Assembly (NCBI GenBank): GCA_964565765.1
Contig: CAZMGF010000008.1
Location: 4,910-68,909 of the forward strand
Direction of reading: 5' to 3'
DNA: 64,000 bases
Origin: an uncultured Spirochaetia bacterium
GTDB taxonomy: Bacteria > Oederibacteriota > PGYV01 > Palsa-1178
Of the stretch, positions 9,443 to 28,781 are shown piece after piece. Position numbers and translations under genes: made by a program. Position 1 is the stretch's first letter; every line of letters begins with the position of its first letter. A model generated the notes under the pieces. That model was not told the origin of the DNA and searched no databases. It worked only from the letters and a program-made list of their open reading frames with translations.

Positions 9443-9850
9443 ATGGCTGATGATTTTTCAATGTTAAGAAGCGCCCTTCAGAAAGTTGATTTCTTTTACT
9501 CATTGAATATTATGGACCTGGATGCCCTCATAAAGGCCCTCAAGAAAAGAAAAGCAAGGGCTGGAGAGGTCATTATAAAGCAGGGAGAAATAGGGGATAA
9601 ATTTTATCTGATAGGCTCCGGCGCTGTCAGCGTATCAATAAACAACAAAAAAGTAACGGAACTAGGCGACGGCGACTTTTTCGGGGAAATGGCGCTGGTG
9701 ACGGACCTGCCAAGGACCGCGACCATTACCGTGCTTGAGCCGACGGACCTTTTCCTGCTGTATAAAAAGGATTTTAAAAAAATATTATTGTCAAAACCAA
9801 AAATAGCCCACATTATCAATGAAGTTTTAGAGCAGAGAAGAAAAAAATAA
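9443..9850 (+). CDS. stand-alone cyclic-nucleotide-binding (cNMP) domain protein
   Basis: GEVIIKQGEIGDKFYLIGSGAVSV...GDGDFFGEMALVTDLPRTATITV matches the CAP-family cNMP-binding beta-roll with its phosphate-binding cassette. There is no HTH or other effector domain. Confidence 0.8.
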   Translation: MADDFSMLRSALQKVDFFYSLNIMDLDALIKALKKRKARAGEVIIKQGEIGDKFYLIGSGAVSVSINNKKVTELGDGDFFGEMALVTDLPRTATITVLEPTDLFLLYKKDFKKILLSKPKIAHIINEVLEQRRKK

Positions 9851-9944: not shown

Positions 9945-11732
9945 ATGGACGCGACGCAGGTTAAAGAAGGGGAAGCGATAAACCGTATATTTGAAGGGCT
10001 GGACCAGACTGTCAAGGACGCGGTTATGGGAGCCATTGAATTTTTCAGCAAGGAAAAGTCGGAGAACGGCAACAAAATTGAGGATGTGGTAAAGGTCAAC
10101 AAGCTGCGCAACGCGTATAATTCGCTGGTGAGCGCCCTTGTCAATGAAAGGATGAACAGCCTCAATAAATTCCAGGAGCTCTTTCTATGCACCGGGGCCA
10201 TCGCGGATGTGGTCGATATAGGCGGAAATAAAATAACGCTTATGGATCCCGCTGTTTACGCCAAATTGTTCGAGGACTTCTGGAAAAAAGACGGCAACAA
10301 CCCTTTCATCTCGTCCGTATTCTCTGTAACAGATAAAATGAAGGCTCTGGCCGAGGGAAAAATAGAACTCATCGACACCTCCGGGAAAAGAAAATCAAAA
10401 AAATCCGACGATAAAGTTGACCCCAAGAAATTAAAGGCTTCGCTGGAATGGAAGAAAAACGACAGCTTAAAGGCAGGGGCAAACCTTACAAGGACCCTTG
10501 GCTCATACCTTGACAAGATGATGCAGATCGACGGCATAAAGCTTAAAACCTTAAAGTTAAATTATGACGGGTTGAACACTTATTTTAACATCCTGGGCAA
10601 AGGGGCAAAAATCTCGCCGGAAGACAAAAAAATGAAGGACGCGCTGGCCGCCCGCTCCGATATGATGGCAAAGGCGCTGGCTGATTTTACAAAACTTTAC
10701 GCTGAAACATTCACACGCGCGGCCGAAGCAGTCGATTCAATAAAGGAAAAAGTTGACGACATAAAACAAAAAGAAATTGAAATAATCAAGGCCTCATCGG
10801 CTGTATCCCTCGAGGAGAACAGCGCCGTTGATTCCTTTACATCAGAGCACTCAGATATAATCAAAAGGGATATCTCCATAATCAATTCGTTCATTGTAAG
10901 CGCGTCGGAAAAATCATCCAACAGGGTGCCTTATTCGGGCGCGAGAATCCTGCTTAATTCCCAGATACCGGACCTTGCCAGGGCCAATGACTCCTATTTC
11001 TGCACGCCCGGCGCGGTTATGGAATCGCTTAAGAAAATATGCTCCATACATACCAACGCGTTCCCCAAGGATGAGGACGGCAACTATATGATACCGCCGA
11101 TATTGATTGAGCCCATCAGGAATTATGTTGATTTCCTTGAGGACCGCTTTATTATGGGGTTTGTGACCGGAGAGCCGGGCAAAAAAGGGGCGAAAGTATC
11201 CTTTTCGCCGATAGATTTCCAGATTATGAAAGCCATCGGCATGTATCTTGCCAAGGACCCGATATACGATTACCGCGGCGAGATAAACGAAGGCACATTC
11301 ATGGGAGATTACACCGGAAAGATCGAAAAAACCGCCCAGGTAAAATGGACCGGCCAGGACAAGAAAATGAACATGGTCATATCAAGCGAGCTTGTTGACG
11401 CTGCCTCCCGTGATGATGCGGTCATCAATTACATGGATTTTGTATTCAACTGCCTTAACGGCCTCGGGCCGCCGCCGAAAATGTCAAAGAGGCGCATCAA
11501 TATACTGCTCAGGTACGCCACGATTTATTCCGTGGAAAATAATGTAAGGCTCCTTCTGCAGTATGTGGCCCAGTCTGAACCCACGGAAGTGCGCGACACC
11601 ATAATGAAATACACCAACAGGAGCGCGGACGCGGGCAGGGAAATGGTCAAAAAGATAATCAAAGAGGACGCGGTAGTGCAGAGGGTGCTGGGCAACAACC
11701 CGGACATGGTATGCGCGAAAATATTCGTATAG
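9945..11732 (+). CDS. large hypothetical cytoplasmic protein (595 aa), no recognisable motifs
   Basis: Strong SD ggaaggagaaaag before the ATG. No signal peptide or TM. Co-directional with the cNMP gene 94 nt upstream, with no intervening terminator. A terminator follows. Confidence 0.5.
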   Translation: MDATQVKEGEAINRIFEGLDQTVKDAVMGAIEFFSKEKSENGNKIEDVVKVNKLRNAYNSLVSALVNERMNSLNKFQELFLCTGAIADVVDIGGNKITLMDPAVYAKLFEDFWKKDGNNPFISSVFSVTDKMKALAEGKIELIDTSGKRKSKKSDDKVDPKKLKASLEWKKNDSLKAGANLTRTLGSYLDKMMQIDGIKLKTLKLNYDGLNTYFNILGKGAKISPEDKKMKDALAARSDMMAKALADFTKLYAETFTRAAEAVDSIKEKVDDIKQKEIEIIKASSAVSLEENSAVDSFTSEHSDIIKRDISIINSFIVSASEKSSNRVPYSGARILLNSQIPDLARANDSYFCTPGAVMESLKKICSIHTNAFPKDEDGNYMIPPILIEPIRNYVDFLEDRFIMGFVTGEPGKKGAKVSFSPIDFQIMKAIGMYLAKDPIYDYRGEINEGTFMGDYTGKIEKTAQVKWTGQDKKMNMVISSELVDAASRDDAVINYMDFVFNCLNGLGPPPKMSKRRINILLRYATIYSVENNVRLLLQYVAQSEPTEVRDTIMKYTNRSADAGREMVKKIIKEDAVVQRVLGNNPDMVCAKIFV

Positions 11733-11789
11733 CAATAAGGTAAAAGTTAAAAGGCAGAACCAATAAGTACAATTATAAAGTGTAAATTA

Positions 11790-11828
11790 AAAAAAAGGCC
11801 CCGCGAAAACGGGGCTTTTTTGTTTTTA
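11790..11828. terminator. bidirectional rho-independent terminator between convergent genes
   Basis: gccccg-cgaaaa-cggggc stem-loop flanked by an A-run (5') and a T-run (3'). Confidence 0.7.
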
Positions 11829-11881
11829 AACGTACGTTTTCTGCAGGGGCCGACTTATATGCCTGCCTTATTTTATATGTA

Positions 11882-13207
11882 TCATATAAATGCTCCGGTA
11901 ATTAAAATTACCGCCGTTCCAAAATTAATCATATTATAAACAATTGTATTTTTCTTCTCAAAAAATAATCCGTTGAAATATATCATGGCCGCCGTGATTG
12001 CCGCCACTGCAATTTTTACAGGCAAACCCGCGGCGGGCGCTGAAATACATGACCCCGCGATATAAAGCAATAAAAGAGCGGCGCTGTTTTGAAACGGCAA
12101 TAAAAACCTTCCGGGCCATTTTTTGATGATAAAACGCAGGCAAACGATAATACCAAAAGCAGCCGTAAAACATATTGATAAAGGCGCGCACGCGATTGCC
12201 GTGAAGACGCCGAGCGGAACCGCCATGGCGCTGCCTGAGGGTATTTTTTTTTCAATTGAGCAATAAAGCGCCATAAAAAGCGCCAGAAGGCAGGCGGAAA
12301 AAATAAGATAAGGGTCAAAAGGCCCGGTAAAAACAGGGGCTCCCGCGGCATGGCGCGAAGCAATAAAGCCGGAGAAGACGGCCGCTGCATAAACAAGAGA
12401 TGAAGGCGAAAAAAAGAGCGTGAGAAACCTGTTAAATTCTTTTTTGCCGTAATGCAAGTAATGTAAAACAAAGAGGAACGGAACCAGAAAAAGAAATATC
12501 ATGACTGAAATCCTTGATATGAAAGTATTCACTATTGCAGGTCCGAAAAAGAAGGCATGGACAAGGGTGTTAAATCCGGCCGGGTCAAACGGGAAAACAG
12601 GAAGAAGTATTAATACTGGAAAAGCCATTGAAGATACTGCGAGAAAATAGAGCATAAAAGAGCCTGCAGCGGACCTTAATACAGAGCCTGTTTTTATGAA
12701 AATATAGGAGCCGCAGAGGATGAATCCCGCAAAGACCTCAAACCTTATACCCGGGCATACTGAAACATCGCAGAACGGGTTGAAAAAAAGGAGAATGGCT
12801 TTTGTATAGCCCTCGATCGTATAAATATAATCTATCCTGCAGCCGCCGGGAAAAGCCGCAAAAATGTCAAAAAACGGCACAATAATTATCCAGCCGTAAA
12901 ACAAGAGCAGTATTTTTATTATTTTGACTGGCTTTTCCCCGGTGGCCGCTTTTATTGCAACGGAAAGGGTTATAAAAAGGGTGAGCCACTCCAGGTTAAA
13001 GAGGACAGCCATCTGCATTATTGTGGTCCTTATGAAAGCCACATTGAGCATAGTACGCGGCGGCTCGAGGAGCCCCTCAAAAAAATTCCTGGCAAAGGCA
13101 ATTGTCAGGATAAAGACTGTGAATTTGGCCGGAGTCAGCCCGTAATTTTCGGAAAAATTTATGAAATTTTTAATTTTATTTTCAATGCTGCCCAATTTTA
13201 TTTTCAT
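11882..13207 (-). CDS. polytopic integral membrane protein (function unknown; last gene of the pilin-like operon)
   Basis: At least 10 hydrophobic segments. The start overlaps the stop of the upstream Wzy_C gene (ATGA). Confidence 0.55.
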   Translation of the reverse strand: MKIKLGSIENKIKNFINFSENYGLTPAKFTVFILTIAFARNFFEGLLEPPRTMLNVAFIRTTIMQMAVLFNLEWLTLFITLSVAIKAATGEKPVKIIKILLLFYGWIIIVPFFDIFAAFPGGCRIDYIYTIEGYTKAILLFFNPFCDVSVCPGIRFEVFAGFILCGSYIFIKTGSVLRSAAGSFMLYFLAVSSMAFPVLILLPVFPFDPAGFNTLVHAFFFGPAIVNTFISRISVMIFLFLVPFLFVLHYLHYGKKEFNRFLTLFFSPSSLVYAAAVFSGFIASRHAAGAPVFTGPFDPYLIFSACLLALFMALYCSIEKKIPSGSAMAVPLGVFTAIACAPLSICFTAAFGIIVCLRFIIKKWPGRFLLPFQNSAALLLLYIAGSCISAPAAGLPVKIAVAAITAAMIYFNGLFFEKKNTIVYNMINFGTAVILITGAFI

Positions 13208-14964
13208 TTTACCGGGCCCTGCGCGTTAAAAATAGCCGTGCTGCCGCTGTTAACCACGCCCGGGTCTATGGTAACGGCCCTTTCAAGCTGGGCCTGCGCC
13301 TCTTTTTCACGGCCCATGGCGGAATATGACCTGAAAAGCCCGAGATGGGCCGCGGCAAGGTCCGGACAGCAGCTCAGGGCGCTTTCAAAATACTGCGCCG
13401 CGGCAGCATAATTTTTTTCATAAAGGCTGATGGAAGCTATATTGTACAGGATGTCAGGGGAATACGGGAAATAAGCCAGGGCGCGTTTGTAAGTTTCAAT
13501 TGAGGCAGCTGTGAACCCGGCTGATGATAAATAATTGGCGTAATATTCAAGGGCATAATAATTGTCGGGCTCCAGCTCAATGCTCCTGGAAAAATCAGAA
13601 AAACCCGACGCTCCTTTTTCCATGGCTTTTTCAAGGTAAAAATCAGAAGAAGCGGCTCCGGGTTTAATAAAACACATGTATATAACTGCCGGAACCGCCA
13701 GGATTAAAGCCGCCGCGCGCTTAATGTATCCTGGTATTGTAAAAGAGCTGCCGCCGGAATATCCGGCTCCAAGCGAGGCTGTCAACCCGGCTGCAATGAA
13801 ATATATTGCCGAAGAAGGGAACGAAAACAGTGGAAAATTAAAGAATGATTCGCATATTAAGAATATAAAAGCTGAAAAAAGGGCCGCGCCGAAGATATAA
13901 TCTTCAGCAGGCACGGTTTTTGACGACAGGCGGCCGAAAGAAATTGCCGTTGAAAACACAAATGCCATAAAAAGCAAAAATCCGGAAATGCCGGTCTCAC
14001 AGAGAAGCTGCAGGTAATCATTATGTGAATAAGACGAGGTTACATATGTGAAATTATGATTATTATTGATAAAATTTGCCTGCTTTTGGGGGTTAAAGCG
14101 CCTGAAAGCTCCGGCTCCGGCGCCGAAAAGCGGAGAAGCCTTAAATATATCAATGGAGGCAAGGGCCGTTAAAAGCCGGTTCTTTACCTCGGGAGAGCCC
14201 GAAGAAAAACCGTTAGCGCCGCGAGATGCCGCGTTTTTTATTGCCCCGGAAAATCCGGGAATAAAGCATATTAAAATAAAAGCGGCGCAGATAAAGGCGG
14301 CCCTTTTTTTATTCAGCCTGATTTTAAAGCCGCTGGAAAAGAAATACCAGGCAAAGGCGGCAAGAGAAATTAAAAGCGATATAAGGACACCGCGCGACGA
14401 GCACATGATAAGCGCGGGAACCGAGAGTGAAAGATTTACCGACGCGATAAGGCGGAGCGGCCCCGGATAATAGAGGGAAAAAAGCATGACAGGAACAACG
14501 GCGGCAATGAACTCGGCGAAAAAAATGGGGTTCCCGAAGGAAGAATAGGGCCTTGTTATCCCGAGAAAAGAATATTGATAAATTCCGTATAGGAGAGCCG
14601 GCAATATTACTATATTAAGAAAAAGCGATATTTTTCCGGCGGACAGGTTTGAATAAAACGCGGTAAAAAAAAGGAGCGGGGAGAAAAACAAAAGGCCGTA
14701 ATAAAAAGACGGGTGGTTCCATGAAAAAAGCAGCCTGGCCGATGAATAAAGGTAAAAAGCCGCGGCAAAAATGGATGGGAATGAAAAGCGGGTTTCGCCG
14801 CGCGCAAGAAAAAGAAGGACAAGGGTGATAATTCCGGCAGTAAATACTCCGAGTGCCTTCGGGAGCTGGTAAGCGTCGTACATATAAGGGCAGAAAATTA
14901 CAAGGCAAAATACCGCCGCGAGCAGGAGCAGGTTAAACGCGCGGCCCGGTAAAATTTTAGCCAT
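13204..14964 (-). CDS. O-antigen ligase-like (Wzy_C/PglL family) membrane protein with C-terminal TPR repeats
   Basis: Multi-TM. YSHNDYLQLLCETGISGFLLFM matches the conserved Wzy_C loop H..YL..L.E.G. The C-terminal ~150 aa are TPR-like (YYANYLSSAGF...YKRALAYFPYSPD...YAAAAQYFESAL). The probable start is the ATG at 14964 (MAKILPGRAF...), 7 nt after the upstream gene's stop; the tracked start 15084 would overlap that gene by 113 nt. Confidence 0.65.
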   Translation of the reverse strand: MAKILPGRAFNLLLLAAVFCLVIFCPYMYDAYQLPKALGVFTAGIITLVLLFLARGETRFSFPSIFAAAFYLYSSARLLFSWNHPSFYYGLLFFSPLLFFTAFYSNLSAGKISLFLNIVILPALLYGIYQYSFLGITRPYSSFGNPIFFAEFIAAVVPVMLFSLYYPGPLRLIASVNLSLSVPALIMCSSRGVLISLLISLAAFAWYFFSSGFKIRLNKKRAAFICAAFILICFIPGFSGAIKNAASRGANGFSSGSPEVKNRLLTALASIDIFKASPLFGAGAGAFRRFNPQKQANFINNNHNFTYVTSSYSHNDYLQLLCETGISGFLLFMAFVFSTAISFGRLSSKTVPAEDYIFGAALFSAFIFLICESFFNFPLFSFPSSAIYFIAAGLTASLGAGYSGGSSFTIPGYIKRAAALILAVPAVIYMCFIKPGAASSDFYLEKAMEKGASGFSDFSRSIELEPDNYYALEYYANYLSSAGFTAASIETYKRALAYFPYSPDILYNIASISLYEKNYAAAAQYFESALSCCPDLAAAHLGLFRSYSAMGREKEAQAQLERAVTIDPGVVNSGSTAIFNAQGPVK

Positions 14965-14971
14965 AAACGGA

Positions 14972-16522
14972 TTAATACGTTGGAACAGGCGTCGGGATAA
15001 GGAATGTAAACTCGCTGAATGAAAGTATCTGCACGCTTGACCCGGTGACGCCAAAAAGATTTGAGTTGCTGTTGTAATAAACATAAAGAGACGGCGTGTC
15101 GTTTACCGTATCCAGCCATAGCCTGCTGTTTTCCCCCAGATAAACCGTGCCGTATATGCAGACATTGGAATTGTTCGTGGAAGCGCCGCTGCGTACCCCG
15201 CCTATTGTAAGGTCGCCGTTGGTATATAAAAGGCCGCAGTGTTTTACATTTGAAAGATAGCCGGGTGTGCCTGTTGTAAAGTGAAGGCCGTCCGACGATT
15301 GCGGCAGGTAAAAGTTGGTGGGTGTCGGCACATTATATACCGTTGAGTAATTGCTCTGTGATGACGGGGTAAAGGTTGCGTAATGATATGTGGAGCCGGC
15401 GCTGGGGTTGTCGCCTATTAATCTTAGAGGCCCCATAACTATAACAGTTCCGTAAGTAAGATACTGGTTCGTGCTGTTTGTATAAAAGGCAATGGTATTT
15501 GCCGAGGTGTAAGTAGTGCCGCAATATGTGTTGCATGGCGAGGTCCGCACAGGCAGGCCGTCGGTGGTATCTATAAAAAGCACGCTGCCCGCGCTGTTTG
15601 CCATAGAGGTTATTGTCACGGCATTTGCCTGTGTTATTTTGGACATGGGCCAGCCAACCGGACCGAAATAGGTATTGTGGGCCTTTGCATAATTTCTGAA
15701 ATAATCAAAATCAATATCAGGTGCCGCGGCCAGGGATGAATAAGGATGCGCATGCGCGGTGGGGCTCATGTCATCGTATGTCTGGCCAAAAACAAGCGTT
15801 GAGCCTGTCCTGCCGGAATTGTATGAAACAGCGGTGTAAATGGAACCCATGGCATAAACCTGCGGCATCCAGGGCTGGTGGCCGTTAACCACATTTCCTC
15901 CCGCAACCTGTATCTGCCTGATCCTGCAGTAAGCGTCGGTTGTATTGGCTGAATATATATCACCCCAGAAAAATTCCGCCGGGTCCGCGTCGCTCCCGTT
16001 AGTGTCATAGCACGTGTCTATCATTCCCTTTGATATAAGCGGCCCGCCAAGGCCGGTCTTTTGTATTACAGCGTAAAAATCCCCTACGCAGGCTGTAATC
16101 GTAGTCATAACTTTTATGCCTATTGTACGGCTGCCATTAATATCCTGCCTCGGCTGCGTCGGGTCGGAAAGGACAGTGTAAAAAAGATTGCCCTGGGCAA
16201 TGTGAATTTCATAAGTCCCGAGGCTGGTCGTAAACTGGGTGCTGTAGTTTTGATATGCCGGAAGAGTGCTGGCGAATGTGTACCAGTTGTTGTTCTGTTC
16301 AAGTTTGTATATGCACTGCTCAAGTGCAAGTGAGGCAATCTCCTGTTTCTGCACAATGCAGCTGCCCTTTACAAGGAACTGCTGGTTGTACCTGAAAAGA
16401 AAGACAAGGGAAGCGCTCATTATGGCCAGCGTCCCGGCAAGAAGCAGTACGGTCGGCAGGGTCTGCCCCTTTTCTTTTACCGCGCTTTTTTTAACAGCTG
16501 TTTTCTTTTTTATAATGGCCAT
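14972..16522 (-). CDS. pilus-associated large minor-pilin-like protein (PilX/GspK-like N-terminal TM, lacks Glu+5)
   Basis: N-terminus MAIIKKK...KGQTLPTVLLLAGTLAIMSASLV is a single hydrophobic helix following a basic segment. It shares the MAII(K/R)K N-terminus with the 882-aa pilin. The rest is a Ser/Thr/Asn/Tyr-rich extracellular domain. Confidence 0.45.
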   Translation of the reverse strand: MAIIKKKTAVKKSAVKEKGQTLPTVLLLAGTLAIMSASLVFLFRYNQQFLVKGSCIVQKQEIASLALEQCIYKLEQNNNWYTFASTLPAYQNYSTQFTTSLGTYEIHIAQGNLFYTVLSDPTQPRQDINGSRTIGIKVMTTITACVGDFYAVIQKTGLGGPLISKGMIDTCYDTNGSDADPAEFFWGDIYSANTTDAYCRIRQIQVAGGNVVNGHQPWMPQVYAMGSIYTAVSYNSGRTGSTLVFGQTYDDMSPTAHAHPYSSLAAAPDIDFDYFRNYAKAHNTYFGPVGWPMSKITQANAVTITSMANSAGSVLFIDTTDGLPVRTSPCNTYCGTTYTSANTIAFYTNSTNQYLTYGTVIVMGPLRLIGDNPSAGSTYHYATFTPSSQSNYSTVYNVPTPTNFYLPQSSDGLHFTTGTPGYLSNVKHCGLLYTNGDLTIGGVRSGASTNNSNVCIYGTVYLGENSRLWLDTVNDTPSLYVYYNSNSNLFGVTGSSVQILSFSEFTFLIPTPVPTY

Positions 16523-16535
16523 ATTTTCCCCTTCT

Positions 16536-17204
16536 TTAATTGTAATAATAACCCGCCGAGTGCATGCGTTTTACAACGATTGTTTCCTGCGTAAATACTG
16601 TCAGCGGCGGCTGCGCCGCGAATACCCATTTGGAGAAGCGCGCCCCGACATTTATTACCGTGGCGTCCTTTGAATCGGCGTAATCAAAGCTTATCGAGTC
16701 CAGGTTTGCCGTAAGTGTAACGGTGGTGTAATATGTATTGGCGGTCACAGCGGAATTATTTGTCATATCCGTGCCTGGCAACACCTGCGGGTAAACCGCG
16801 AGAAGGTGGGAGCCGTACTGGAAAAGCTGTATCGGCGAGCCGGCGGCGCCGACTGTTGTGGTGCTTGAAGACTGCCCGGCGCAGCCGCATTTTGACTGCG
16901 TGGTGGTGATGTAAACCTGTTCAGCTATTATGGCCTCAATATATGAGTTTACAGGCTCCCCGGTGTCATACCTGGATATGGCGATTGTGGCCCCCTGGCA
17001 CTGGGTTATAAGCTTCCTTATTGTAAGCATTGTCACCCTTGATTCGCTTTCAAGGGCGATCCTTGCCGAGCCCATCTGCCACATATAATTGCCGTTCTTC
17101 AGCAGGGTAAAGATACCAACGCTTAAAATGGAAAGCAGCCCCACGGAAATCATGGCCTCTATCATTGTAAATCCTCTTTTGCCTTTTTTACCGGATAAAC
17201 TCAT
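16536..17204 (-). CDS. type IV pilin / pseudopilin with prepilin-type N-terminal cleavage/methylation motif
   Basis: MSLSGKKGKRG-FTMIEAMISVGLLSILSVGIF is a class-III signal peptide, with cleavage after G and Glu at +5. Confidence 0.75.
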   Translation of the reverse strand: MSLSGKKGKRGFTMIEAMISVGLLSILSVGIFTLLKNGNYMWQMGSARIALESESRVTMLTIRKLITQCQGATIAISRYDTGEPVNSYIEAIIAEQVYITTTQSKCGCAGQSSSTTTVGAAGSPIQLFQYGSHLLAVYPQVLPGTDMTNNSAVTANTYYTTVTLTANLDSISFDYADSKDATVINVGARFSKWVFAAQPPLTVFTQETIVVKRMHSAGYYYN

Positions 17205-17227
17205 TTTATCCCGCCTTTAATAAAATT

Positions 17228-19876
17228 TTAATATGCGGTCCATGTCCCGAGCGCGCCCGATATGTTCTGCCCGGTAAGTGAAGAGGTGCCGACAGCGATG
17301 GAAGGCAGCACCTTATAATATTTAGCCACGGTTTTTGTCATGTTAAGCGGCGTGCCGGTGTAAGAAATAAATGAATAATAGGCGTAAATGTCGTATGTGG
17401 TATTTACAGGGACTCGTATGGTGAAAGAGCCGTCACCCTGCCCGGGGAAGCCGTAGCTTGGATAAATCATCCTGGTGTGGCCGGAATACTGCTGGTAAAC
17501 AGTGGTGAGGTCATAGTGGTAATCTGAAGCGTGAATTGTGACGGAAGAAGGGTATATAACAACGTTCAACCCCTGTGAAACATTCTGGCTGTCCATCTGG
17601 ACATTGCCGCTCAAGCTGACGTATATCGGGACCACCTTGAAATTTGTATTTATGGCCGTGCCGCCGGCGGTTATCACAAGATTGTGCCATTTGCTGTCTG
17701 ATGTGACTGGATAAGTTATGCTGTATGAGGTTGTGTCAATGGTTATCGCAGCCTGATAACCGGAGCCCACGGGTATGCCGGTTATTAAATAGTAGCCCGT
17801 AATAGAGTCTGAATAGGCGTCGCTGCCGACATGATTGCCGCCGCTGTCAAATGCCTGGACAAAGATACCGCCCATGGGCAGGCCCGTGATGCCGTTCGTT
17901 ATTGTGCCCGACATGGAACCCGCCTGTGTGAGTGTTAGTGTCCCGGCGTTTGTAATGGCTCCGCCCGGTACGGAAGCAAGGCTCTCGGATGCCGAAGTGT
18001 AGCCGGGCATGCTTGCCTTTAAAGTATAATTGGTGCCTGGAACGGCATTTGTAAAATTAAACGCCCCGCCGTTGGTTGGAACCGAGTCGCCGGCGGAATC
18101 GCTCAGGTCAACTTCGGCGCCGGAAATATAATTGCCGAGAGAATCCTTGACAAAACCGGTCACAATAGCGGTTGATCCGGTTGTGGCTGTAAGTGTGACA
18201 ATAATTGAAACTGTACTTGTTGTTGACATGGGAACAATTACGCTGGCGTAATAAAGTACACTGTTATAGGTAAGGTAACTGATAACTGTAGTGGTGGTGC
18301 TGGCTGAACAGTTAATATTGCTTATAGTGAACGAGCCATTGGTTCCAACTGTTGCCATTGCCGACATGCCGTCAAGAGAGGAAACATTGGCGCCCACCGC
18401 GAAATAAACAGGCGGAGTAGCTGTCGGGGTTGCCGTATATGCGGGTGTGTTTGTCGCTGTGAAAGTGGGCGGGCAGGAGTAATAATCCACCTCAAGCCAG
18501 GCAGAGTCAATATAGGCGGCGGTTAAAAACCCGGGGCTGACCTTGAAAAATACTCCAAGATTGTTTACTTCGGACCAGTTCCACGTGGTATATATTGAAG
18601 CAATATCATAAGTGAATGTGTTCCAGTTCCATGCGGCAAGTGTGAAAGGCGAGCCTGTAAAGTACGTGGATGTTGTTCCGGTCCAGCCGCCGGCGTTGTT
18701 ATACCAGTTGGTACCGCTGTTTTGAGTAAAATTGAAATTGCAGGCAACGCTGCCGAACAGCCCCGCCTCGCCGTAAACCTTGAACCTGACGTCGGAAATG
18801 CAGGTATTTGCCGGGGAAGAAGAATTGTCAAATTCGGAATAAAGCATTTGATTGGTGCCGGACCCCTGTGAAGCGGAATTGCCGTCGCTTGCGCCGTGTA
18901 TGTATGTGGGGTTGGACCAGTTCTGGGTCTTTCCAGACATGGCGCCTGTGGCGTAAAGTATAAGAGTGGTGACAGCCGGAGTCGGAGTGTTTGTCGGCAC
19001 CAATGTCAGGGTAGGAGTCGGCGTCTGAATTGGAACATTTATCAAAGCAATTCCAGACACCTGGCAGCCGTTAATCTGCGGGCATGTTATGTTTATTCCG
19101 GTAACAGAAGTTACGGTTTCAGAAATGGAGACAGGGTTTGAGGTATAATTTGTGGGGGAGAGGCCGGGGCCGTCAGCGTATAAAGTATACGAGCCGGGAG
19201 GAACATTGGATATTGAATATGCCCCTGTGCTGCTTGCGGTTCCTGTGTATGCCGAGTATCCGACAATATGAACAATGGCGCCGGGCGCGGCCGAAGTTCC
19301 CGAAGAGTTTGATTTATAAACCGTCCCTGAAATTGTGGCGCCCGTCAGGTTCAGGGTTTTGTCCGAAAGATATGATGTTAGCCTGCTGGTTTTTGTAACT
19401 CCGTTGGACATATAAGTAACTATTGAGGTCAGCTGTTTAATGTCCGGGTTTGTAACGGTAAGGGAAGAGGCAGGCAGCCCTTCAAGGTTCCCGTTCCCGT
19501 CCTCCTGGGCCCATTCAACGCACGAATACACTTTATAAATCATCTGTGTGGTACCCGATGTTACGGTTACATAATGGTAAGTGTCATAAGCGCTTGTCCC
19601 TGTGGCGCATGTCTGAAGCGGGGTAAGATTGGTGAAATTTGAGTCAGGCAGGCACGAATCAGGGGTAGGCGGAAGGTTGTTAAATCCCTTGGATTTCAGG
19701 TAATCAAGCTGCTGCGAACACAGGGAGAGTGAGTATTGTTTTTGCTGGGAAATAAGGGAGTCTTTGTAAAGGCTTGTCATAAGGTTGACCGAGGCGACTA
19801 TCATAAATGTAATTACAACAGTCGATATAAGTGTTTCAATGTAAGTGAGTCCGCGGCTCTTCCTGATAATTGCCAT
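17228..19876 (-). CDS. giant (882 aa) prepilin-type protein with carboxypeptidase-regulatory-like/Ig-like beta-sandwich domains and TP linkers
   Basis: N-terminus MAIIRKSRG-LTYIETLISTVVITFMIVASV is a prepilin motif with E+5. Internal GATISGTVYKSNSSG...YSISNVPPGSYTL and GFVKDSLGNYISGAEVDL... resemble CarboxypepD_reg folds. TP-rich linkers include IQTPTPTLTLVPTNTPTP and TNTPAYTATPTATPP. Confidence 0.65.
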   Translation of the reverse strand: MAIIRKSRGLTYIETLISTVVITFMIVASVNLMTSLYKDSLISQQKQYSLSLCSQQLDYLKSKGFNNLPPTPDSCLPDSNFTNLTPLQTCATGTSAYDTYHYVTVTSGTTQMIYKVYSCVEWAQEDGNGNLEGLPASSLTVTNPDIKQLTSIVTYMSNGVTKTSRLTSYLSDKTLNLTGATISGTVYKSNSSGTSAAPGAIVHIVGYSAYTGTASSTGAYSISNVPPGSYTLYADGPGLSPTNYTSNPVSISETVTSVTGINITCPQINGCQVSGIALINVPIQTPTPTLTLVPTNTPTPAVTTLILYATGAMSGKTQNWSNPTYIHGASDGNSASQGSGTNQMLYSEFDNSSSPANTCISDVRFKVYGEAGLFGSVACNFNFTQNSGTNWYNNAGGWTGTTSTYFTGSPFTLAAWNWNTFTYDIASIYTTWNWSEVNNLGVFFKVSPGFLTAAYIDSAWLEVDYYSCPPTFTATNTPAYTATPTATPPVYFAVGANVSSLDGMSAMATVGTNGSFTISNINCSASTTTTVISYLTYNSVLYYASVIVPMSTTSTVSIIVTLTATTGSTAIVTGFVKDSLGNYISGAEVDLSDSAGDSVPTNGGAFNFTNAVPGTNYTLKASMPGYTSASESLASVPGGAITNAGTLTLTQAGSMSGTITNGITGLPMGGIFVQAFDSGGNHVGSDAYSDSITGYYLITGIPVGSGYQAAITIDTTSYSITYPVTSDSKWHNLVITAGGTAINTNFKVVPIYVSLSGNVQMDSQNVSQGLNVVIYPSSVTIHASDYHYDLTTVYQQYSGHTRMIYPSYGFPGQGDGSFTIRVPVNTTYDIYAYYSFISYTGTPLNMTKTVAKYYKVLPSIAVGTSSLTGQNISGALGTWTAY

Positions 19877-20010
19877 TAAATCATCCCTTTTCCGGTTATT
19901 TAAAGACTCTCCTTATAATAGTATACTTAAGAAAAAAACTTTTGTCAAATATTTTAGTAAATATCGATCATGCACTTTTTGAAACCGACGTTTCATAAAT
20001 AATGGCAAAA

Positions 20011-20787
20011 TCAGTATTTTTTCAGAACAGTTTTTTTAAATATCCACATTAAAGATGCAAAAAGAAATACTATAATGCAAAAGAGCTGGGCGTCAGAAAT
20101 TAAATGATGAATTTCGTGATACCGGAAAAACTCAATAAAAAATCTGGCTATTGCATAACACGCTCCGGTAAGCAGTATAAGTTCTCCGCGGTAAACAACG
20201 GATTTTTTCATGATATAAAGCAGGATGAGGATAATCAGCCACGCGCACGACTCATAAAGCTGTGCCGGGTGGAGTGGGACGTTTCCAAAAACAGTATAGG
20301 CATAAGAATAAGGGGAATAAAATGTCCCGAAAAAGTAATTTTTGGGAGACGGAATGCCGGGGCAACAGCCGTTAAAAAAACATCCCAGCCTCGCGAAGAT
20401 ACCGCCTGCCGCAAGGGAAAATGAAAAAATATCGGCCGCCTGCCAGGGGTCTGTCTTTAATAATTTAGCCGCAGGGAAAGCGCAGAGGGCCGCGGCAATG
20501 AGCCCCCACCATAATGAAACCTGGCCGAAGAGCGAAAACGACAGCCCCTTCTCATGGTTAAAAAAACCTTCAGCTACATAACCGTAACGGCTCGCAAGCG
20601 TGAACGGAACGAACAATATAAGGGCAAACAGGATTATCCGGTCCCGGAATTCTTTCGGGTAAGGTTTTAAATTATAAAAAAGAAGGAGAAACCCGGCGAT
20701 GATGCCGGCAAAATTCAAAATCCAATAGCTCCGTATTGTCAGCTCGCCGATGTAGCCAAGAATTGGATAGATAAAACCACCTCGCAT
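20011..20787 (-). CDS. lgt: prolipoprotein diacylglyceryl transferase
   Basis: ARLGCFFNGCCPG and HPAQLYES match the Lgt signatures (R.GNF.N.E..G / HPTQLYE). About 7 TM helices. Confidence 0.75.
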   Translation of the reverse strand: MRGGFIYPILGYIGELTIRSYWILNFAGIIAGFLLLFYNLKPYPKEFRDRIILFALILFVPFTLASRYGYVAEGFFNHEKGLSFSLFGQVSLWWGLIAAALCAFPAAKLLKTDPWQAADIFSFSLAAGGIFARLGCFFNGCCPGIPSPKNYFFGTFYSPYSYAYTVFGNVPLHPAQLYESCAWLIILILLYIMKKSVVYRGELILLTGACYAIARFFIEFFRYHEIHHLISDAQLFCIIVFLFASLMWIFKKTVLKKY

Positions 20788-20812
20788 ATAATTTTATACA
20801 TTATATCATAAA

Positions 20813-21640
20813 TCAGGCTAATTTGAAAAAGAGGGCGGCGTATATAAACATCAGCGCGAAGACAATTGCTTCATTTACTTTCCCCTTGCGCATTATTATA
20901 TAAAAGGTGGCCCCTCCAAGTATTATGGAAGGCGCTAGCATGAGCGCGCTATGTAAAAGCAGCGGCACCAGCAAATACGCCGCGTATGCCAGCGACGCTG
21001 TGACAAACCTCCCTTTTTCAGGGCCGAAAATGGTCATAAGGGTCATTACGGAATATTTTTTGTCCCCTTCGTAATCATTAACATCTTTTGTGTTGAAGGC
21101 CATGAATAAAAGGGCGGTGAAAACAGCTATGGCGGCAAATGGAAGCTTTGAAAAGATGCCGCCAGCCAGCAGATAACCCAGTACAAGGGCAAGGCTGGTT
21201 GAAAATGCTATAAGCAGTGTATTGACTGGAAAATATTTTTTTAACCTGAAAGGGGGGCAGGAATAAATCCACGCGGCCACGTGGATTGCAATTACTGCTA
21301 TTAACACAGGTATTGAAACTGCAAGCGAAAGGGAGACAGATGTCGCTAAAAGGAAAAAGAAGGCGTACAAATATCCACGCTGTGTAACGCCGGTTATGTT
21401 TAACGTATTGCCCTTATTGTTAACAGCGTCTATGGGGGCGTCATATATATTATTGAGAATAAGGCTGGCGGCAAATAGGATGTTTATAAGGAAGAACCCT
21501 TCTATTAATAACAGGGCATGAAGCGTAGAAGAGCACATTTTTATTGCCATATCATATCCCGCGCAAAAGACAGCGGTGTAATATATATGACGTGAAATGC
21601 GGAGAGAGGACAGGAACGCTTTGATATTTTTCATAGCCAC
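20813..21640 (-). CDS. UbiA-family membrane prenyltransferase
   Basis: First Asp-rich motif NNIYDAPIDAVN (N..YD...D) and second motif KDVNDYEGDKKY. About 8-9 TM helices. Confidence 0.6.
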   Translation of the reverse strand: MAMKNIKAFLSSLRISRHIYYTAVFCAGYDMAIKMCSSTLHALLLIEGFFLINILFAASLILNNIYDAPIDAVNNKGNTLNITGVTQRGYLYAFFFLLATSVSLSLAVSIPVLIAVIAIHVAAWIYSCPPFRLKKYFPVNTLLIAFSTSLALVLGYLLAGGIFSKLPFAAIAVFTALLFMAFNTKDVNDYEGDKKYSVMTLMTIFGPEKGRFVTASLAYAAYLLVPLLLHSALMLAPSIILGGATFYIIMRKGKVNEAIVFALMFIYAALFFKLA

Positions 21641-21833
21641 CTTTAATATGAATTTTCGTAATTATACCATAAATTTTCGCCTGCCCGCCGAAGCCATTCA
21701 GGGCGAAGGCGGGTGTGCAATAATATCTTGAAATCTGACAAAAAATCTATTATAATCAAATAGAGGGAATGTTATTGGTATATTTGCGTCTGCAAATTTA
21801 CCGGCATTCAAAAAACTTTATAAAGGACAACTG

Positions 21834-24554
21834 ATGAAAAAAATGATAATGAAAGCAATTAAAAGCCTCGCGGCAATAAGTTTTATCATCCTATTAATGT
21901 ATATACCGGCCGCCGCCACCACAAGCGCGGTGACAGTTGTGAGCATGACACCTTCCAACCCGAATCCGGGCGATATGGTTGCTATCGTGGTAAGCTATTG
22001 TGCCCAGGCTTATGATGACACGCGTATTATGCTTGCTGTTTCACAATATAATATGATACAGGCAAACAACACGGCCGGACAGACATTTAAGGTTGATGAA
22101 AACGGGACAGATGTCGGCGGCACTGGGGCCGGGGATTCTTCCGTCAACGGCGGTTACAATACAAATGACAATCCTTCAACCGCGCAATGCTACACATTGA
22201 CCTTTAATATAAACATCCCGACGACATTTTCGGGCGGCGGGACCTATTATATTGTTGTGGGAGCAAGATCATATTACACGGCGCCCGGCGCGGGGAACAT
22301 TGATTCGCAGAATTATCTGCAGTTTACCCTTCCGCTTCCTCCGCCATCCGCTTCTATAACCAAAACAGCCGAAGACACCCCCGAATTCCCGGGAGAAAAC
22401 ATTCTTTATACTATTAATTACACATTTGTTAATTCAACCACTTTTACAATAACAGACACAGTACCGCCAAACTGCACACTTGTGAGCCAGAGCGTCGGCG
22501 GTACAAGCACGGGAACCACTCCGGGATCTACCCTTACATGGGCAATTGGAAATACGGCACAACAAAAAACAGGAAGCGTATGGTTTGTAGTGAATATAGG
22601 GGCGGGAGCGGCTTCATCCACAATACATAATACGGCGAACTGGACCACGGTGGAAATACCGGCGGGAGGTTCAAGCGGAGATGCGCCTGTGGTTGTCGGG
22701 CCTGCCGCGTTTACACTCACGAAATCAGAATCAGAGGCCACGGGAGTAATAGGCGACACAGTTACGTATGCATTTGATTTCCAGGCAGGAGGTATGTTTT
22801 TTAACTCATATGATACTTTTGATACCACCAATGAATCAAGTTTGTTTACAGCGGTCAGCAACGGAGGGCCGGGATACCCGGGCACATGGACATGGGAAAG
22901 CGATGGAAACGGCGGCGGTTATGTTTATTCACCGCAGCAGGGAACAGGGCCAACCAACACCCATTATCCCCATTATCTGAGGAACACACCGACTAATTTT
23001 TGTTTTGGAGAGATAGAGGCTGATATACAGATACAAAATGGAACAACAAACTGGGACGGCTCATTAACATTCAGGGATAACGGAGTGGCCGATAATTGTG
23101 TTGCGTACGGTGTTGGAATTTCGCAGGATAACAGCCCGGGATATTTATTCATTCAAAAATCAGTTCCGGGATATACGCCTTTAGTTGCTACTACCGCGAT
23201 TCCATTTACAATAAACTTTAATCAATTCTATACTGTAAAAGTGCTTGTCACAGATGCGGGAAATGGAGCAGTTGAGATACAGGCCAGTGTTTGGCCGCAG
23301 GGGCAACCCGATCCAATGGCATGGTATCTTACATATATTGACACACCCGGACCCACAAATACAGTTATACCAGCCTGTGGCCAGGTCGGTTTTCAGGGGT
23401 GCCCGTATAATCCAGATGTCTTTGACAACCTGAAAATATCAGAGTCTGTTCATACGAACCCGCGTTTATTTGACACAATACCCACCAGCATTACATATTC
23501 CGGCGGGACACCGGCGAGTGTTACGGTTAATTCAGCGCCTGTTGTTTCCAACGGCGTGGTATCGTGGAACATCACAACGCAGCTGAGCAGCATGGTATAT
23601 CACTATGAGTGGTACGGGATAATTAATTATTGCGGCACCATTCCAAATACGGGATCCTTTATCGCGGATAACGGCTTTGGCACTGTTAATTCCAACACTG
23701 TAAGCCTCAGCGTCCCTGTCTGCCCGCAGACAGCCACATTTACCCCGACTTATACAATTACAAACACATACACTGTGACCTCAACTTATACACCAACGGT
23801 AACCATGACAGTGACAATGACGCAGACGCCTTCTCCTATAATACCTCAGTTTACCCTTTCAAAGGCTGAATCAGAGACAACGGCAAATATCGGCGATACA
23901 GTGACATATACAATAACCTATAATAATACCGGGCTCATCGACCTGACAAACCTTGATGTCTGGGATACAGTGCCGGCGCAGCTTACTGATATAACAACCA
24001 TATCACCCGCCGGTGGAAATTACAGCGCGGCTACAGGGCTGGTTTCATGGGTATTGGCGGATGTGCCTGTATCCGGATCCGGCACCATGGTATTTTCAGG
24101 GGTTGTTTCCAATAATGTAAATAACGGACAGGTCATGCCAAACACCGCTTACGGAACGGTTGTGAGCGGACAAAATACTGTGGTGTCAAATACCGTCAAC
24201 CTGACCGCAAGCGTGCCGGAACTTCAGCTCACGCCTATAATGAATTATCCCAATCCTTTCGGCGGCGGGCCGGATACTACAACAATAGTTTTCGGGCTGA
24301 CCGTTCAGGCTGAAGTTGATGTAAAATTTTTTACAATATCAGGCGAACTTGTCAGGACAATGACATATGACGAATTAAAAGGGCAACTTGTGGCCCCGCA
24401 GACGGACACACAGAAAGGCACCAATAAGTTCATATGGGACGGAAAAAACGACAGCGGCAACAGGCTGGCCTCCGGAGTATATTTTTACAGGGTAGAGGCG
24501 AAAAGAGGAAACGAAAGCGCCCATTACATTTCAAAGCTGGCTATTTTAAGATAA
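21834..24554 (+). CDS. large secreted adhesin-like protein with DUF11-type repeats, TP linker and T9SS-type C-terminal sorting domain
   Basis: Signal peptide. Repeated units LTKSESEATGVIGDTVTYAFDF and LSKAESETTANIGDTVTYTITYNNTG (DUF11-like). TP-rich stretch TPTYTITNTYTVTSTYTPTVTMT. C-terminus NYPNPFGG...ISGELVRTM...WDGKNDSGNRLASGVYFYRVEA...KLAIL is a type-A CTD. Confidence 0.7.
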   Translation: MKKMIMKAIKSLAAISFIILLMYIPAAATTSAVTVVSMTPSNPNPGDMVAIVVSYCAQAYDDTRIMLAVSQYNMIQANNTAGQTFKVDENGTDVGGTGAGDSSVNGGYNTNDNPSTAQCYTLTFNINIPTTFSGGGTYYIVVGARSYYTAPGAGNIDSQNYLQFTLPLPPPSASITKTAEDTPEFPGENILYTINYTFVNSTTFTITDTVPPNCTLVSQSVGGTSTGTTPGSTLTWAIGNTAQQKTGSVWFVVNIGAGAASSTIHNTANWTTVEIPAGGSSGDAPVVVGPAAFTLTKSESEATGVIGDTVTYAFDFQAGGMFFNSYDTFDTTNESSLFTAVSNGGPGYPGTWTWESDGNGGGYVYSPQQGTGPTNTHYPHYLRNTPTNFCFGEIEADIQIQNGTTNWDGSLTFRDNGVADNCVAYGVGISQDNSPGYLFIQKSVPGYTPLVATTAIPFTINFNQFYTVKVLVTDAGNGAVEIQASVWPQGQPDPMAWYLTYIDTPGPTNTVIPACGQVGFQGCPYNPDVFDNLKISESVHTNPRLFDTIPTSITYSGGTPASVTVNSAPVVSNGVVSWNITTQLSSMVYHYEWYGIINYCGTIPNTGSFIADNGFGTVNSNTVSLSVPVCPQTATFTPTYTITNTYTVTSTYTPTVTMTVTMTQTPSPIIPQFTLSKAESETTANIGDTVTYTITYNNTGLIDLTNLDVWDTVPAQLTDITTISPAGGNYSAATGLVSWVLADVPVSGSGTMVFSGVVSNNVNNGQVMPNTAYGTVVSGQNTVVSNTVNLTASVPELQLTPIMNYPNPFGGGPDTTTIVFGLTVQAEVDVKFFTISGELVRTMTYDELKGQLVAPQTDTQKGTNKFIWDGKNDSGNRLASGVYFYRVEAKRGNESAHYISKLAILR

Positions 24555-25547: not shown

Positions 25548-26132
25548 ATGAAAAAGACAACAATTATCCTGATGATCTCGCTTTTTTTAGCGGCTGTTGC
25601 CGCCGCTGATTCGGAAAAACTTATCTTTACGGAATACGGGGTTTCATACGCGTCGGTCCTGACGCCTTCAATAATTGCCAATAATTCCACCGGCACTTTT
25701 GACACCGCCGCTTTTGATATAAAAGTTGGAGCTTCATTTCTTGACAGATGGGCTGAGGCATATGTGGGGGCCGGTTTCCAGGCCTTTATATTCACCTCAA
25801 ACTCACAGGAAAACTATTCCTTTTTCCCGCTTTACGGCGGAATCAAGGCGAATATATGCCCGGACTGGACTGTTTATCCGGACATTATATTCGAATACGG
25901 AAGGGCCATTTCAAACATACGTTCGCAGTATATGACGGACATGGGGCCCATGAACAGGGACAACGCGTGGCTGGCCGATTATTACAGCTTCGGTGCGGGC
26001 ATAAACTGGAAGATAGAGGACATCGCCATTCTTGGATTAAAAATTGAAAGGCCATCATATTCAAACCTGAACAAGAGTTACGGGGAAATACAGGTAATCA
26101 AAGCCGGCATCACATGGCAAATATACTATTAG
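25548..26132 (+). CDS. small outer-membrane beta-barrel protein (OmpW/OmpA-barrel-like), function unknown
   Basis: Signal peptide, alternating hydrophobic beta-strand pattern, and a C-terminal aromatic (..GITWQIYY). Lies between marR and the OMF gene. Confidence 0.45.
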   Translation: MKKTTIILMISLFLAAVAAADSEKLIFTEYGVSYASVLTPSIIANNSTGTFDTAAFDIKVGASFLDRWAEAYVGAGFQAFIFTSNSQENYSFFPLYGGIKANICPDWTVYPDIIFEYGRAISNIRSQYMTDMGPMNRDNAWLADYYSFGAGINWKIEDIAILGLKIERPSYSNLNKSYGEIQVIKAGITWQIYY

Positions 26133-26149
26133 GACAAGGAGAAAATAAA

Positions 26150-27751: not shown

Positions 27752-27787
27752 AAGTATGGATAATAAACGGGCAATACGGAGGGTTAA

Positions 27788-28714
27788 GTGAAGAGGACCT
27801 TTGATAAAAACGCGGTGCAGCATGCTGTTTTTGCGGCAGTCGTAATAATTGTATGCTTTATGCTGGTAAACTGCGCGAAAAAAGAGAAGGAAACTTCTTA
27901 CAGCGTCTCGGTTTATACCCTTGAAAAGCAAAAAGTTCCCCATATGATAACGGTTCAGGGGATACTTGAGGGCGATCCACAGGTGAAGGTATATCCGCAG
28001 GTGGCTGGTAAGTTCGTTAAAAACGCGGTTCCCGAGGGGGCCCGTGTGAATAAGGATGATGTTGTGGCTTATGTTGACCGCGACCAGATCGGATACAAAT
28101 ATGAGCTCGCTCCGGTAAAGGCGCCGATAGCCGGCGTTGTCACGAAACTGTATTTTATCGACAGGGGCGGCAAAGTGGACCAGCAATCTCCCGTGGCCGA
28201 GGTGGCCAACGAGGACAATATAAAGGTTGTATTTAATATAGGACAGGATGATCTTTTGAAGGTGAAAAAGGGGCAGAGCGCTCTTATATATTACGCCAAT
28301 GATTCGGCGCTTGCGGTATCCGGGACAGTTTCGTCGGTTCCGCCGGTTGTCAATATGGATATAATGGCGGGCACCATAATAGTGACTGGTTCCAATAAAT
28401 CAAAAATATTAAAAATAGGCATGTCGGTAAATGTCAGCATATTGACAGGTGTAAAGGAAAGTTATTTAATCCCTGAAAAGGCGATCCTTCAGAGTGATGA
28501 CGGGTTGTATGTGTTTGTTGACGCAGGCGGAAAAGCGGCCAGGGCAAAGGTTATTACCGGATACAGGTTAAATGATATGATAGAAATAGAAGGGCAATTT
28601 TCCGACGGGGACAGGATTGTAATCGACGGGAACTCGGGCCTATCTGACGGGGCCTTGCTGAATATAACAGCGGCGCAGGACCGTGAAAAACCGGCGGGCG
28701 GCGCACAAATTTAA
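27788..28714 (+). CDS. RND efflux periplasmic adaptor (membrane-fusion protein), copy 1
   Basis: N-terminal anchor, then the biotinyl/lipoyl-like hairpin EGDPQVKVYPQVAGKFV...DVVAYVDRD, beta-barrel and MP domains. Paralogous to 28782 and 33510. Confidence 0.7.
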   Translation: MKRTFDKNAVQHAVFAAVVIIVCFMLVNCAKKEKETSYSVSVYTLEKQKVPHMITVQGILEGDPQVKVYPQVAGKFVKNAVPEGARVNKDDVVAYVDRDQIGYKYELAPVKAPIAGVVTKLYFIDRGGKVDQQSPVAEVANEDNIKVVFNIGQDDLLKVKKGQSALIYYANDSALAVSGTVSSVPPVVNMDIMAGTIIVTGSNKSKILKIGMSVNVSILTGVKESYLIPEKAILQSDDGLYVFVDAGGKAARAKVITGYRLNDMIEIEGQFSDGDRIVIDGNSGLSDGALLNITAAQDREKPAGGAQI

Positions 28715-28781
28715 ATATTTTCAATAATCAATAATTATTGATTATTTTTTTTGCAAATCAGGCTCAAGAAGGCGGGACAAA

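Follow-up and report, generated by a model that had tools for sequence, protein, structure and literature searches.

What is the function of an operon in which proteins of the pilin type are encoded next to a membrane enzyme of the O-antigen-ligase superfamily? The question is raised by five genes on the minus strand (19876 down to 11882) of a 64,000-nucleotide stretch of contig CAZMGF010000008.1, from an uncultured peat-bog bacterium labelled Spirochaetia; this whole stretch is called the window here. In order, the genes encode pil882, a predicted modular prepilin of 882 amino acids (aa; 17228-19876), pil222, a predicted prepilin-type minor pilin of 222 aa (16536-17204), p516, a putative ComZ/GspK-like tip pilin of 516 aa (14972-16522), Wzy_C-TPR, a Wzy_C-family membrane enzyme of 586 aa (13204-14964), and mem441, a polytopic protein of 441 aa (11882-13207). 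The operon probably encodes the tip, or priming, module of a type IV filament, made up of a ComZ-like cap, a small pilin and a modular adhesin pilin. The whole explanation, in which this tip module is accompanied by a co-translated envelope glycan ligase, has about an even chance of being right.

All five open reading frames (ORFs), which a first-pass annotation had read from the sequence, are present at the same positions. They are real genes, not chance ORFs, because their order is kept in about 20 independent genomes. The window corresponds to a JGI metagenome contig (3300041809, Ga0455670_0003592). Identical genes are present in other public assemblies, and one of these has the 222-aa gene and the Wzy_C gene too, with their order unchanged. 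The packing is as tight as had been reported, but the gaps of 4 to 24 nucleotides (nt) given at that stage are in fact spacers of 23, 13 and 7 nt, in order, and a 4-nt overlap of genes 4 and 5. The product of gene 4 starts with MAKILPG; the start of the longest ORF, at 15084, would overlap gene 3, and the 586-aa form is the one in the public gene call and in orthologues.

Forty-one homologues of p516 were found in a collection of 5.8 billion proteins, and a scan of 185,579 species genomes gave 19 loci. Together with three metagenome loci, one of them a duplicate of a genome locus, these make 21 distinct loci, onto whose ORFs all window proteins were mapped. Nine of the 19 genome loci are labelled candidate division FCPU426, Goldbacteria or Goldiibacteriota, and the rest have generic names or are likely misassignments. 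The latter are metagenome-assembled genomes labelled 'Spirochaetia' or 'Methylomirabilis' (among L009, L013, L014, L016, L020, L021, L024 and L027); these labels are probably taxonomic misassignments or binning errors.

The order pil882-pil222-p516-Wzy_C-TPR is complete in 20 of the 21 loci, the contig of the remaining one ending inside the Wzy_C gene, and it is never broken, with identities as low as 34% (p516) and about 30% (Wzy_C-TPR). Spacers in all loci are 24 nt or less, or are overlaps; the exception is a spacer of 122 nt between two copies of the pilin triplet in L024 (6611-17893). Here the triplet is tandemly duplicated (829/234/534 aa, then 687/220/613 aa) before a single Wzy_C-TPR gene, and one copy has a long-form and the other a short-form big pilin. 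In L018 the block is intact despite a rearrangement, the neighbouring UbiA gene having moved to its 3' side. The coupling of the Wzy_C gene to pilins, proposed from the window alone, is strictly conserved across a deep clade, and the arrangement is restricted to the candidate phyla FCPU426 and Goldbacteria.

Two of the three pilin-like proteins have class III signal peptides, as the first reading had it: MAIIRKSRG-LTYIE in pil882 and GKRG-FTMIE in pil222 (the hyphen marks the predicted cleavage site). Across the 21 independent related loci the motifs are G-(L/F/V/M)T(F/Y/L)(I/V)E for pil882 and G-(F/W)T(L/M)(I/M)E for pil222, with Glu5 invariant in both, including all 23 orthologues of pil222. 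The glycine at -1 is kept in all pil882 orthologues but one and in at least 90% of those of pil222, with Ala in a single orthologue in each case. Searches for the N_methyl domain placed pil222 above the cut-offs (PF07963, 28 bits against 21.2; TIGR02532, 18.2 against 16.3), but pil882 gave no match at E ≤ 0.1 in the Pfam scan; its orthologue P0075 does carry PF07963. Matches of a pil222 profile to the PDB were confined to the N-terminal helices of solved pilins. A match of pil222 to 'Verru_Chthon cassette protein C' was rejected, as it covered the N-terminal helix only (E 0.004) and was far under the cut-off. Judged by these motifs, pil882 and pil222 are true prepilin-type proteins, and pil882 is a modular pilin.

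The N-terminus of p516 consists of a basic leader, G-QTLPTV and then a hydrophobic stretch, and has no Glu5. All orthologues conform to (G/A)-Q(S/T)(L/F)P.V, in which the residue at +5 is variable, non-acidic and never Glu. An N-terminal MAII(K/R)K had been pointed out as common to pil882 and p516; it is not kept in orthologues and is coincidental. An AlphaFold model of p516 built from 36 sequences (predicted local distance difference test, pLDDT, 79.6; predicted template-modelling score 0.74) has a 54-residue N-terminal helix and a β-rich body. When this model was searched with Foldseek, the top match was ComZ of Thermus thermophilus (E 2.6e-5, probability 0.96), followed by an ice-binding protein, and structure comparison showed that the β-solenoid resembles both ice-binding proteins and tapirin adhesins. 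Two traits of GspK/PilX/ComZ-type proteins are found in the modelled p516, namely a pilin leader and helix without Glu5 and a GspK-type pilin fold with a large inserted β-solenoid. The initial description of this protein as PilX/GspK-like is backed by the model and can be sharpened: p516, as modelled, is ComZ-like, with a GspK-type pilin domain and a β-solenoid. At the level of sequence, there was no Pfam or NCBIfam match of p516 to T2SSK, PilX_N or ComZ, a profile of the 36 sequences found nothing among PDB sequences at E ≤ 10, and the solenoid alone had no match in Pfam.

ComZ has a GspK-like pilin domain bearing an ice-binding-protein-like β-solenoid, has no Glu5 and has been argued to cap the pilus and to bind PilA2 (PMC6561018). 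ComZ with PilA2 (PDB 6qvi, 6qvf) is matched by the p516 model in size (~500 aa), in the N-terminal hydrophobic helix and in the joining of a GspK-type domain to a large solenoid, and both proteins are encoded beside small minor pilins. The partners differ, being PilA1-3 in Thermus, whereas here they are one 222-aa pilin and a giant modular pilin, with the Wzy_C-TPR gene after them. As a role in DNA binding has been proposed for Thermus ComZ/PilA2, the module could be the tip of a competence (DNA-uptake) pilus, with p516 as DNA receptor. This is improbable: p516 has no detectable sequence homology to ComZ, its solenoid also resembles ice-binding proteins and tapirin adhesins, pil882 with its adhesin-like β-sandwiches has no counterpart in the Thermus locus, and no com genes lie nearby.

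The GspK-GspI-GspJ tip of type II secretion systems (PDB 3ci0; XcpVWX, 5vtm) offers a second comparison. The insert of GspK is an α-helical domain, whereas that of p516 is a β-solenoid, and one of the partners here is an 882-aa modular protein. The three proteins are very unlikely to be pseudopilins that form a GspK/I/J-like periplasmic tip rather than part of a surface pilus, since an 882-aa protein of many β-sandwiches and a β-solenoid of 340 aa are hard to fit into a periplasmic piston. In addition, no gsp genes are found nearby, and ComZ, which has the same architecture, belongs to a pilus.

The large pilin is the probable adhesive component of such a tip. Pfam recognizes two CarboxypepD_reg domains in pil882 (4e-17) and nothing in its middle and C-terminal modules. 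Structure prediction with AlphaFold2, which had been proposed as a check, was run with 8 usable homologues; a pilin-like N-terminal module (helix at ~12-62 and a small sheet at ~104-171) and then strings of β-sandwich domains, including C-terminal ones, can be seen, but the model is weak (pLDDT 59.8) and its structural matches are generic and adhesin-stalk-like only. Orthologues of 680 to 725 aa are without exactly residues ~279-495, a module of ~200 aa with TP-rich linkers at both ends, so this stretch is optional, swappable cargo. PilB and PilC of Streptococcus sanguinis are reportedly modular type IV pilins of this kind, in which a pilin module carries bulky functional modules displayed by the filament. 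The modules of pil882 are different, being CarboxypepD_reg-type β-sandwiches and a ~200-aa module between TP linkers, and they occur in a diderm.

A mechanism can be proposed from these elements. A prepilin peptidase encoded elsewhere would cleave all three pilin-like proteins after Gly. The ComZ-like p516, without Glu5, would cap the filament, by analogy with GspK, and pil222 and the pilin module of pil882 would dock under it through their N-terminal helices to give a GspK/I/J-like trimer that primes assembly. In this position pil882 would act as an adhesin, with its string of β-sandwiches and the swappable middle module carried outward. Genes for the major pilin and for the PilB/C/D/M-Q machinery would lie elsewhere.

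One point that weighs against a filament tip concerns this machinery. Window ORFs of at least 150 aa were scanned (on the plus strand all but one, which is nested in a larger gene; on the minus strand those that do not overlap), and none has PilB, PilC, PilD, PilM-Q or secretin domains. A motif scan found no T2SS-E signature in any frame of the window or related loci, and genes for a prepilin peptidase, an assembly ATPase, a platform protein, a secretin or a major pilin are missing from the window and from the 10-kb surroundings of every related locus. The low confidence of the pil882 model counts on the same side. A further canonical prepilin motif was not found in the window or related loci, apart from one chance match in an unrelated ORF of an Elusimicrobia locus. 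No literature on pili in Goldbacteria was found, and the main Goldbacteria genome paper and its supplements make no mention of pili. The absence of pilus assembly genes from the window had been recorded correctly at the outset, and was explained either by machinery encoded elsewhere or by pseudopilin-anchored surface adhesins of an uncharacterized type. Operons for minor pilins often lie apart from pilBCD and pilMNOPQ, so the missing genes are not anomalous and a new kind of adhesin is not needed.

That the proteins are pilus-independent adhesins, held in the membrane by a cleaved or uncleaved pilin-type helix, is accordingly the least probable of the alternatives and can be given hardly any weight, even though about 20 loci were examined and all are free of assembly genes over a distance of 10 kb. 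The hosts are diderm (they have OEP, OmpA and Omp85 genes), and to display an adhesin beyond the outer membrane, a helix in the inner membrane needs both a filament and a secretin. Moreover, the pattern of Glu5, invariant in two of the proteins and missing from the third, is what marks ordered assembly of a filament.

The filament-tip reading also receives support from outside the clade. An unrelated organism with 67% G+C has a homologous triplet, consisting of an 843-aa pilin, a 169-aa pilin (E 2e-19 with the pil222 profile) and a 428-aa protein (E 6e-14 with that of p516), and as it occurs there too as a unit, the triplet can be regarded as a module. The loci concerned are L032 (4714-9042) and L033 (891-6390), and a third contig (L034, 780-3405) has two tandem p516-like genes. 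The metagenome scan found only two loci outside the clade. The 67%-G+C triplet is without Wzy_C, a protein with a Sec signal being encoded next to it instead; thus, the triplet is the older module and Wzy_C-TPR a clade-specific addition.

FCPU426 and Goldbacteria have no cultured members and their cell surface is almost uncharted. Goldbacteria were first captured through their ability to stick to cellulose (PMC7031533). The operon provides a concrete candidate for an adhesive apparatus, a pilus tip of a ComZ-like β-solenoid cap and a modular adhesin pilin. If the assignment is right, this is the second lineage after Thermus with ComZ-type architecture, and β-solenoid tip pilins are not an oddity of Thermus.

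What the fourth gene contributes is a separate question. Its product was recognized from the start as a Wzy_C-family membrane protein with C-terminal TPRs, and both parts are present (PF04932, 66 bits against a cut-off of 31.7; TPRs at residues 459-568), as they are in 19 of 19 orthologues. The Wzy_C loop has the motif SHNDYLQLLCETG. H314 never varies among the orthologues, and at least 90% of them keep R191, R248 and R263, residues that fit an active ligase of undecaprenyl-diphosphate-linked glycans. Hydropathy analysis predicts ~13 transmembrane (TM) segments, four of them after the catalytic periplasmic loop, which suggests that the TPR domain (~440-586) is periplasmic and on the same side as that loop.

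The acceptor of the glycan is less clear. In a phmmer search of the PDB with the membrane core, an 'oligosaccharyltransferase' (9rmk, E 1.4e-7) and WaaL (7tpg, E 2.1e-7; alignment over residues 21-346) were matched equally, with the catalytic His aligned to the His of both, and so the substrate is not settled by sequence. A profile search with Wzy_C-TPR, intended to separate PglL from WaaL, was dominated by TPR matches and was not decisive. PglL_A (PF15864) and Wzy_C_2 (PF11846) gave no match in gene 4 at E ≤ 0.1 and are not among the families common to the 19 orthologues. The PglL-like assignment of the first-pass annotation is therefore not one that sequence can decide. The same annotation gave the Wzy_C fold as that of TfpW also and described pglL as typically encoded beside its substrate; in fact TfpW belongs to the GT-C type, and there is no linkage between pglL and pilE.

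Known pilin glycosyltransferases resemble Wzy_C-TPR in different respects. TfpO of Pseudomonas aeruginosa (PilO) and of Acinetobacter, and PglL of Neisseria, have a Wzy_C core with the conserved His, many TM segments and a C-terminal periplasmic domain, as predicted here. The gene for TfpO lies directly downstream of that of its pilin substrate, as the Wzy_C-TPR gene follows the triplet in all loci (20 complete and one cut inside the gene). They differ in that the C-terminal domain of gene 4 is of the TPR type, and the adjoining pilins are minor (tip) pilins, not the major one. TfpW, the arabinosyltransferase of group IV pilin in P. aeruginosa, is encoded beside pilA and, like Wzy_C-TPR as predicted, is polytopic with a large periplasmic C-terminal TPR domain; its GT-C fold sets it apart. 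Each kind of component is thus already known, and what is new is the combination of a ComZ/GspK tip, a modular pilin and TfpO/PglL chemistry with a TfpW-like TPR.

Wzy_C-TPR most likely takes a flipped undecaprenyl-diphosphate-linked glycan and transfers it in the periplasm. The extra TM segment and the predicted periplasmic TPR arm may point to a protein acceptor, for which the Ser/Thr-rich tip pilins encoded on the same mRNA would be obvious candidates; such a scheme would give an enzyme of the TfpO/PglL catalytic family a TPR like that of TfpW. Glycosylation of the pilins is plausible though unproven, and that the co-translated Wzy_C-TPR glycosylates the tip pilins is put forward tentatively, at somewhat less than an even chance. 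If true, pilin O-glycosylation extends from major to minor pilins, in convergence with TfpW, and nature would offer a Wzy_C oligosaccharyltransferase that recognizes its substrate through a TPR arm, which could be useful for glycoengineering.

Several observations weigh against the enzyme being dedicated to the pilins. PglL and WaaL cannot be told apart for gene 4 by sequence, PglL_A and Wzy_C_2 are missing, and the periplasmic position of the TPR domain is taken from hydropathy only. The next-best homologues of Wzy_C-TPR are in Elusimicrobia (68 bits, against at least 224 for orthologues), where the gene sits between phoH-ybeY and an M23 peptidase gene, in a context without pilins; this runs partly against the earlier reading, as does the 67%-G+C triplet without Wzy_C. 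Synteny extends to the flanks of the block, where a DUF11 protein, UbiA and Lgt are encoded on one side and a cyclic-nucleotide (cNMP)-binding protein and the convergent 595-aa protein on the other, so adjacency is weaker evidence of function than it would otherwise be. Finally, the richness of the pilin-like proteins in Ser, Thr and TP linkers, which had been emphasized, is real (Ser + Thr 0.21-0.27) but not specific to pilins, because DUF11 surface proteins of the window that resemble cargo of type IX secretion systems (T9SS) are equally rich (0.22-0.27) and have TP linkers as well. Any glycosylation could therefore be general.

Several of these points are what the main alternative is built on, in which the triplet is a tip module and Wzy_C-TPR is a general envelope ligase (WaaL-type or a broad-spectrum O-oligosaccharyltransferase), present in the operon by inherited synteny or co-regulation. 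This is less likely than not, and somewhat less likely than transfer to the tip pilins. It leaves out of account that p516 and Wzy_C-TPR are separated by 0 to 24 nt or overlap in every locus, through divergence to about 30% identity, and that their coupling survived both the rearrangement in L018 and the duplication in L024. WaaL has 12 TM segments and no extra domain, so the additional TM segment and the predicted periplasmic TPR of gene 4 are not WaaL features. The operon is without genes for the lipopolysaccharide core or O antigen, and NCBIfam gave no WaaL equivalog match for gene 4, only weak ones to IctB and PEP_O_lig_1.

A more elaborate version of the dedicated enzyme is rather unlikely. 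It holds that Wzy_C-TPR is a pilin-dedicated O-oligosaccharyltransferase of new design (a Wzy_C core that gained an extra TM segment and a TPR arm in the periplasm, in convergence with TfpW of the GT-C type) which would glycosylate the ComZ-like cap and the giant adhesin pilin and not the major pilin. A pair of UbiA and pseudo-UbiA proteins bracketing the operon would supply or handle the polyprenyl-linked donor, and the whole would form a self-contained 'glyco-tip' cassette common to FCPU426 and Goldbacteria.

The pseudo-UbiA protein of this scheme is mem441, first described merely as a polytopic membrane protein. Its gene follows that of Wzy_C-TPR in 14 loci and is missing from the flanks of five. 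The full-length protein had no Pfam or PDB match, its N-terminal domain (~1-235) alone had none in Pfam, and PF01040 was not matched by any of 15 orthologues. A profile of the orthologues nevertheless matches every neighbouring stand-alone UbiA (1e-9 to 1e-12), and hhalign aligned mem441 with the UbiA encoded next to the operon over 250 columns (98.3% probability, E 2.4e-14). The Asp-rich motifs of UbiA proteins (NxxxDxxxD and DxxxD), which bind Mg-diphosphate, are absent in mem441, YCSIEKK being aligned with NNIYDxxID. From these alignments mem441 is an uncharacterized N-terminal domain joined to a degenerate UbiA fold (~236-441), and is a paralogue of the upstream UbiA. This catalytically decayed protein probably works with the intact UbiA in a polyprenyl-dependent step.

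Relatives of mem441 number only 92 among 1.84 billion representatives. The distant ones are longer, with C-terminal TPRs in 10 of 10 scanned and a UbiA domain directly after the mem441-like part in four. Together with the degenerate UbiA-fold gene, such fusions (N-terminal domain, UbiA and TPR) form a rare, unannotated family of membrane proteins. In L006 the equivalent of mem441 is a fusion of the N-terminal domain and UbiA, encoded 3 kb downstream of the block. Related membrane proteins of 500 to 1000 aa occur rarely outside the clade; one of them, P0102 (L030, 8001-10511), has a protein with a T9SS tail and a Kelch/FlgD_ig protein encoded beside it, and none of its neighbours contains a pilin domain.

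The stand-alone UbiA prenyltransferase (20813-21640, minus strand; UbiA, 87 bits) has intact Asp-rich motifs and is 33% identical to the UbiA part of P0102. The TfpW pathway also needs a UbiA-family enzyme, but the nearest solved structures of the UbiA here are AfUbiA, ChlG and DGGGP synthase; the idea that it is DPPR-synthase-like and feeds arabinosylation, as in Pa5196, was unsupported. The gene directly upstream of the operon (20011-20787, minus strand) is of the Lgt family (LGT, 112.8 bits), although divergent, as it falls below NCBIfam equivalog cut-offs. Wherever the locus is long enough (18 loci), an Lgt gene lies ahead of the block, with an extra gene in between in two. UbiA and the divergent Lgt travel together upstream (20011-21640), and in L006 (5162-7108) a geranylgeranyl-reductase-like FAD protein is encoded between Lgt and the pilin. 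This group looks like a prenyl-lipid module.

The five genes of the operon look like one transcription unit because of their tight spacing, a promoter-like site upstream and a hairpin after mem441. The promoter-like site (TTGACA-17-TATACT, 19920-19948, minus strand) lies ~44 nt 5' of the first ATG, that of pil882, inside the 134-nt gap between Lgt and the pilin. It agrees with the consensus at 11 of 12 positions, a match to the consensus only, and is the top-scoring sigma-70-like site on the minus strand within 11500-22000; the Lgt gene is probably outside the pilin transcription unit. The hairpin (11792-11821) is strong, GC-rich and bidirectional, with a 12-bp stem and T-runs on both sides, and is terminator-like. 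It lies between mem441 and the convergent gene for the 595-aa protein (9945-11732, plus strand), a cytoplasmic protein of no Pfam family. This protein is far better conserved than the operon (phmmer E 1e-239 to 0 across the clade) and is paired in nearly every locus with a small cNMP-binding protein (9443-9850, plus strand).

Also encoded in the window are three large DUF11/CLIPPER proteins (21834-24554, 57441-59252 and 59607-62417, plus strand) whose C-terminal domains are FlgD_ig or CHU_C-type and which resemble T9SS cargo. Their Thr contents are very high and their linkers TP-rich, as in the pilins. FlgD_ig or CHU_C-like domains are found in two large OmpA-family proteins as well (7291-9255, minus strand, and 45150-47549, plus strand), the first of which shows synteny with the cassette at several loci.

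At a distance of about 7 kb from the operon (1548-4982, plus strand), consecutive genes encode a methyltransferase, a GT4 glycosyltransferase and a PMT_2 (ArnT/PMT-like GT-C) membrane protein, possibly a cluster for envelope glycans or protein mannosylation. RND efflux is represented by two successive sets (25548-37537, plus strand), of which the first comprises OEP, two HlyD-like adaptors and AcrB, and the second a MarR-like gene, one adaptor and another AcrB.

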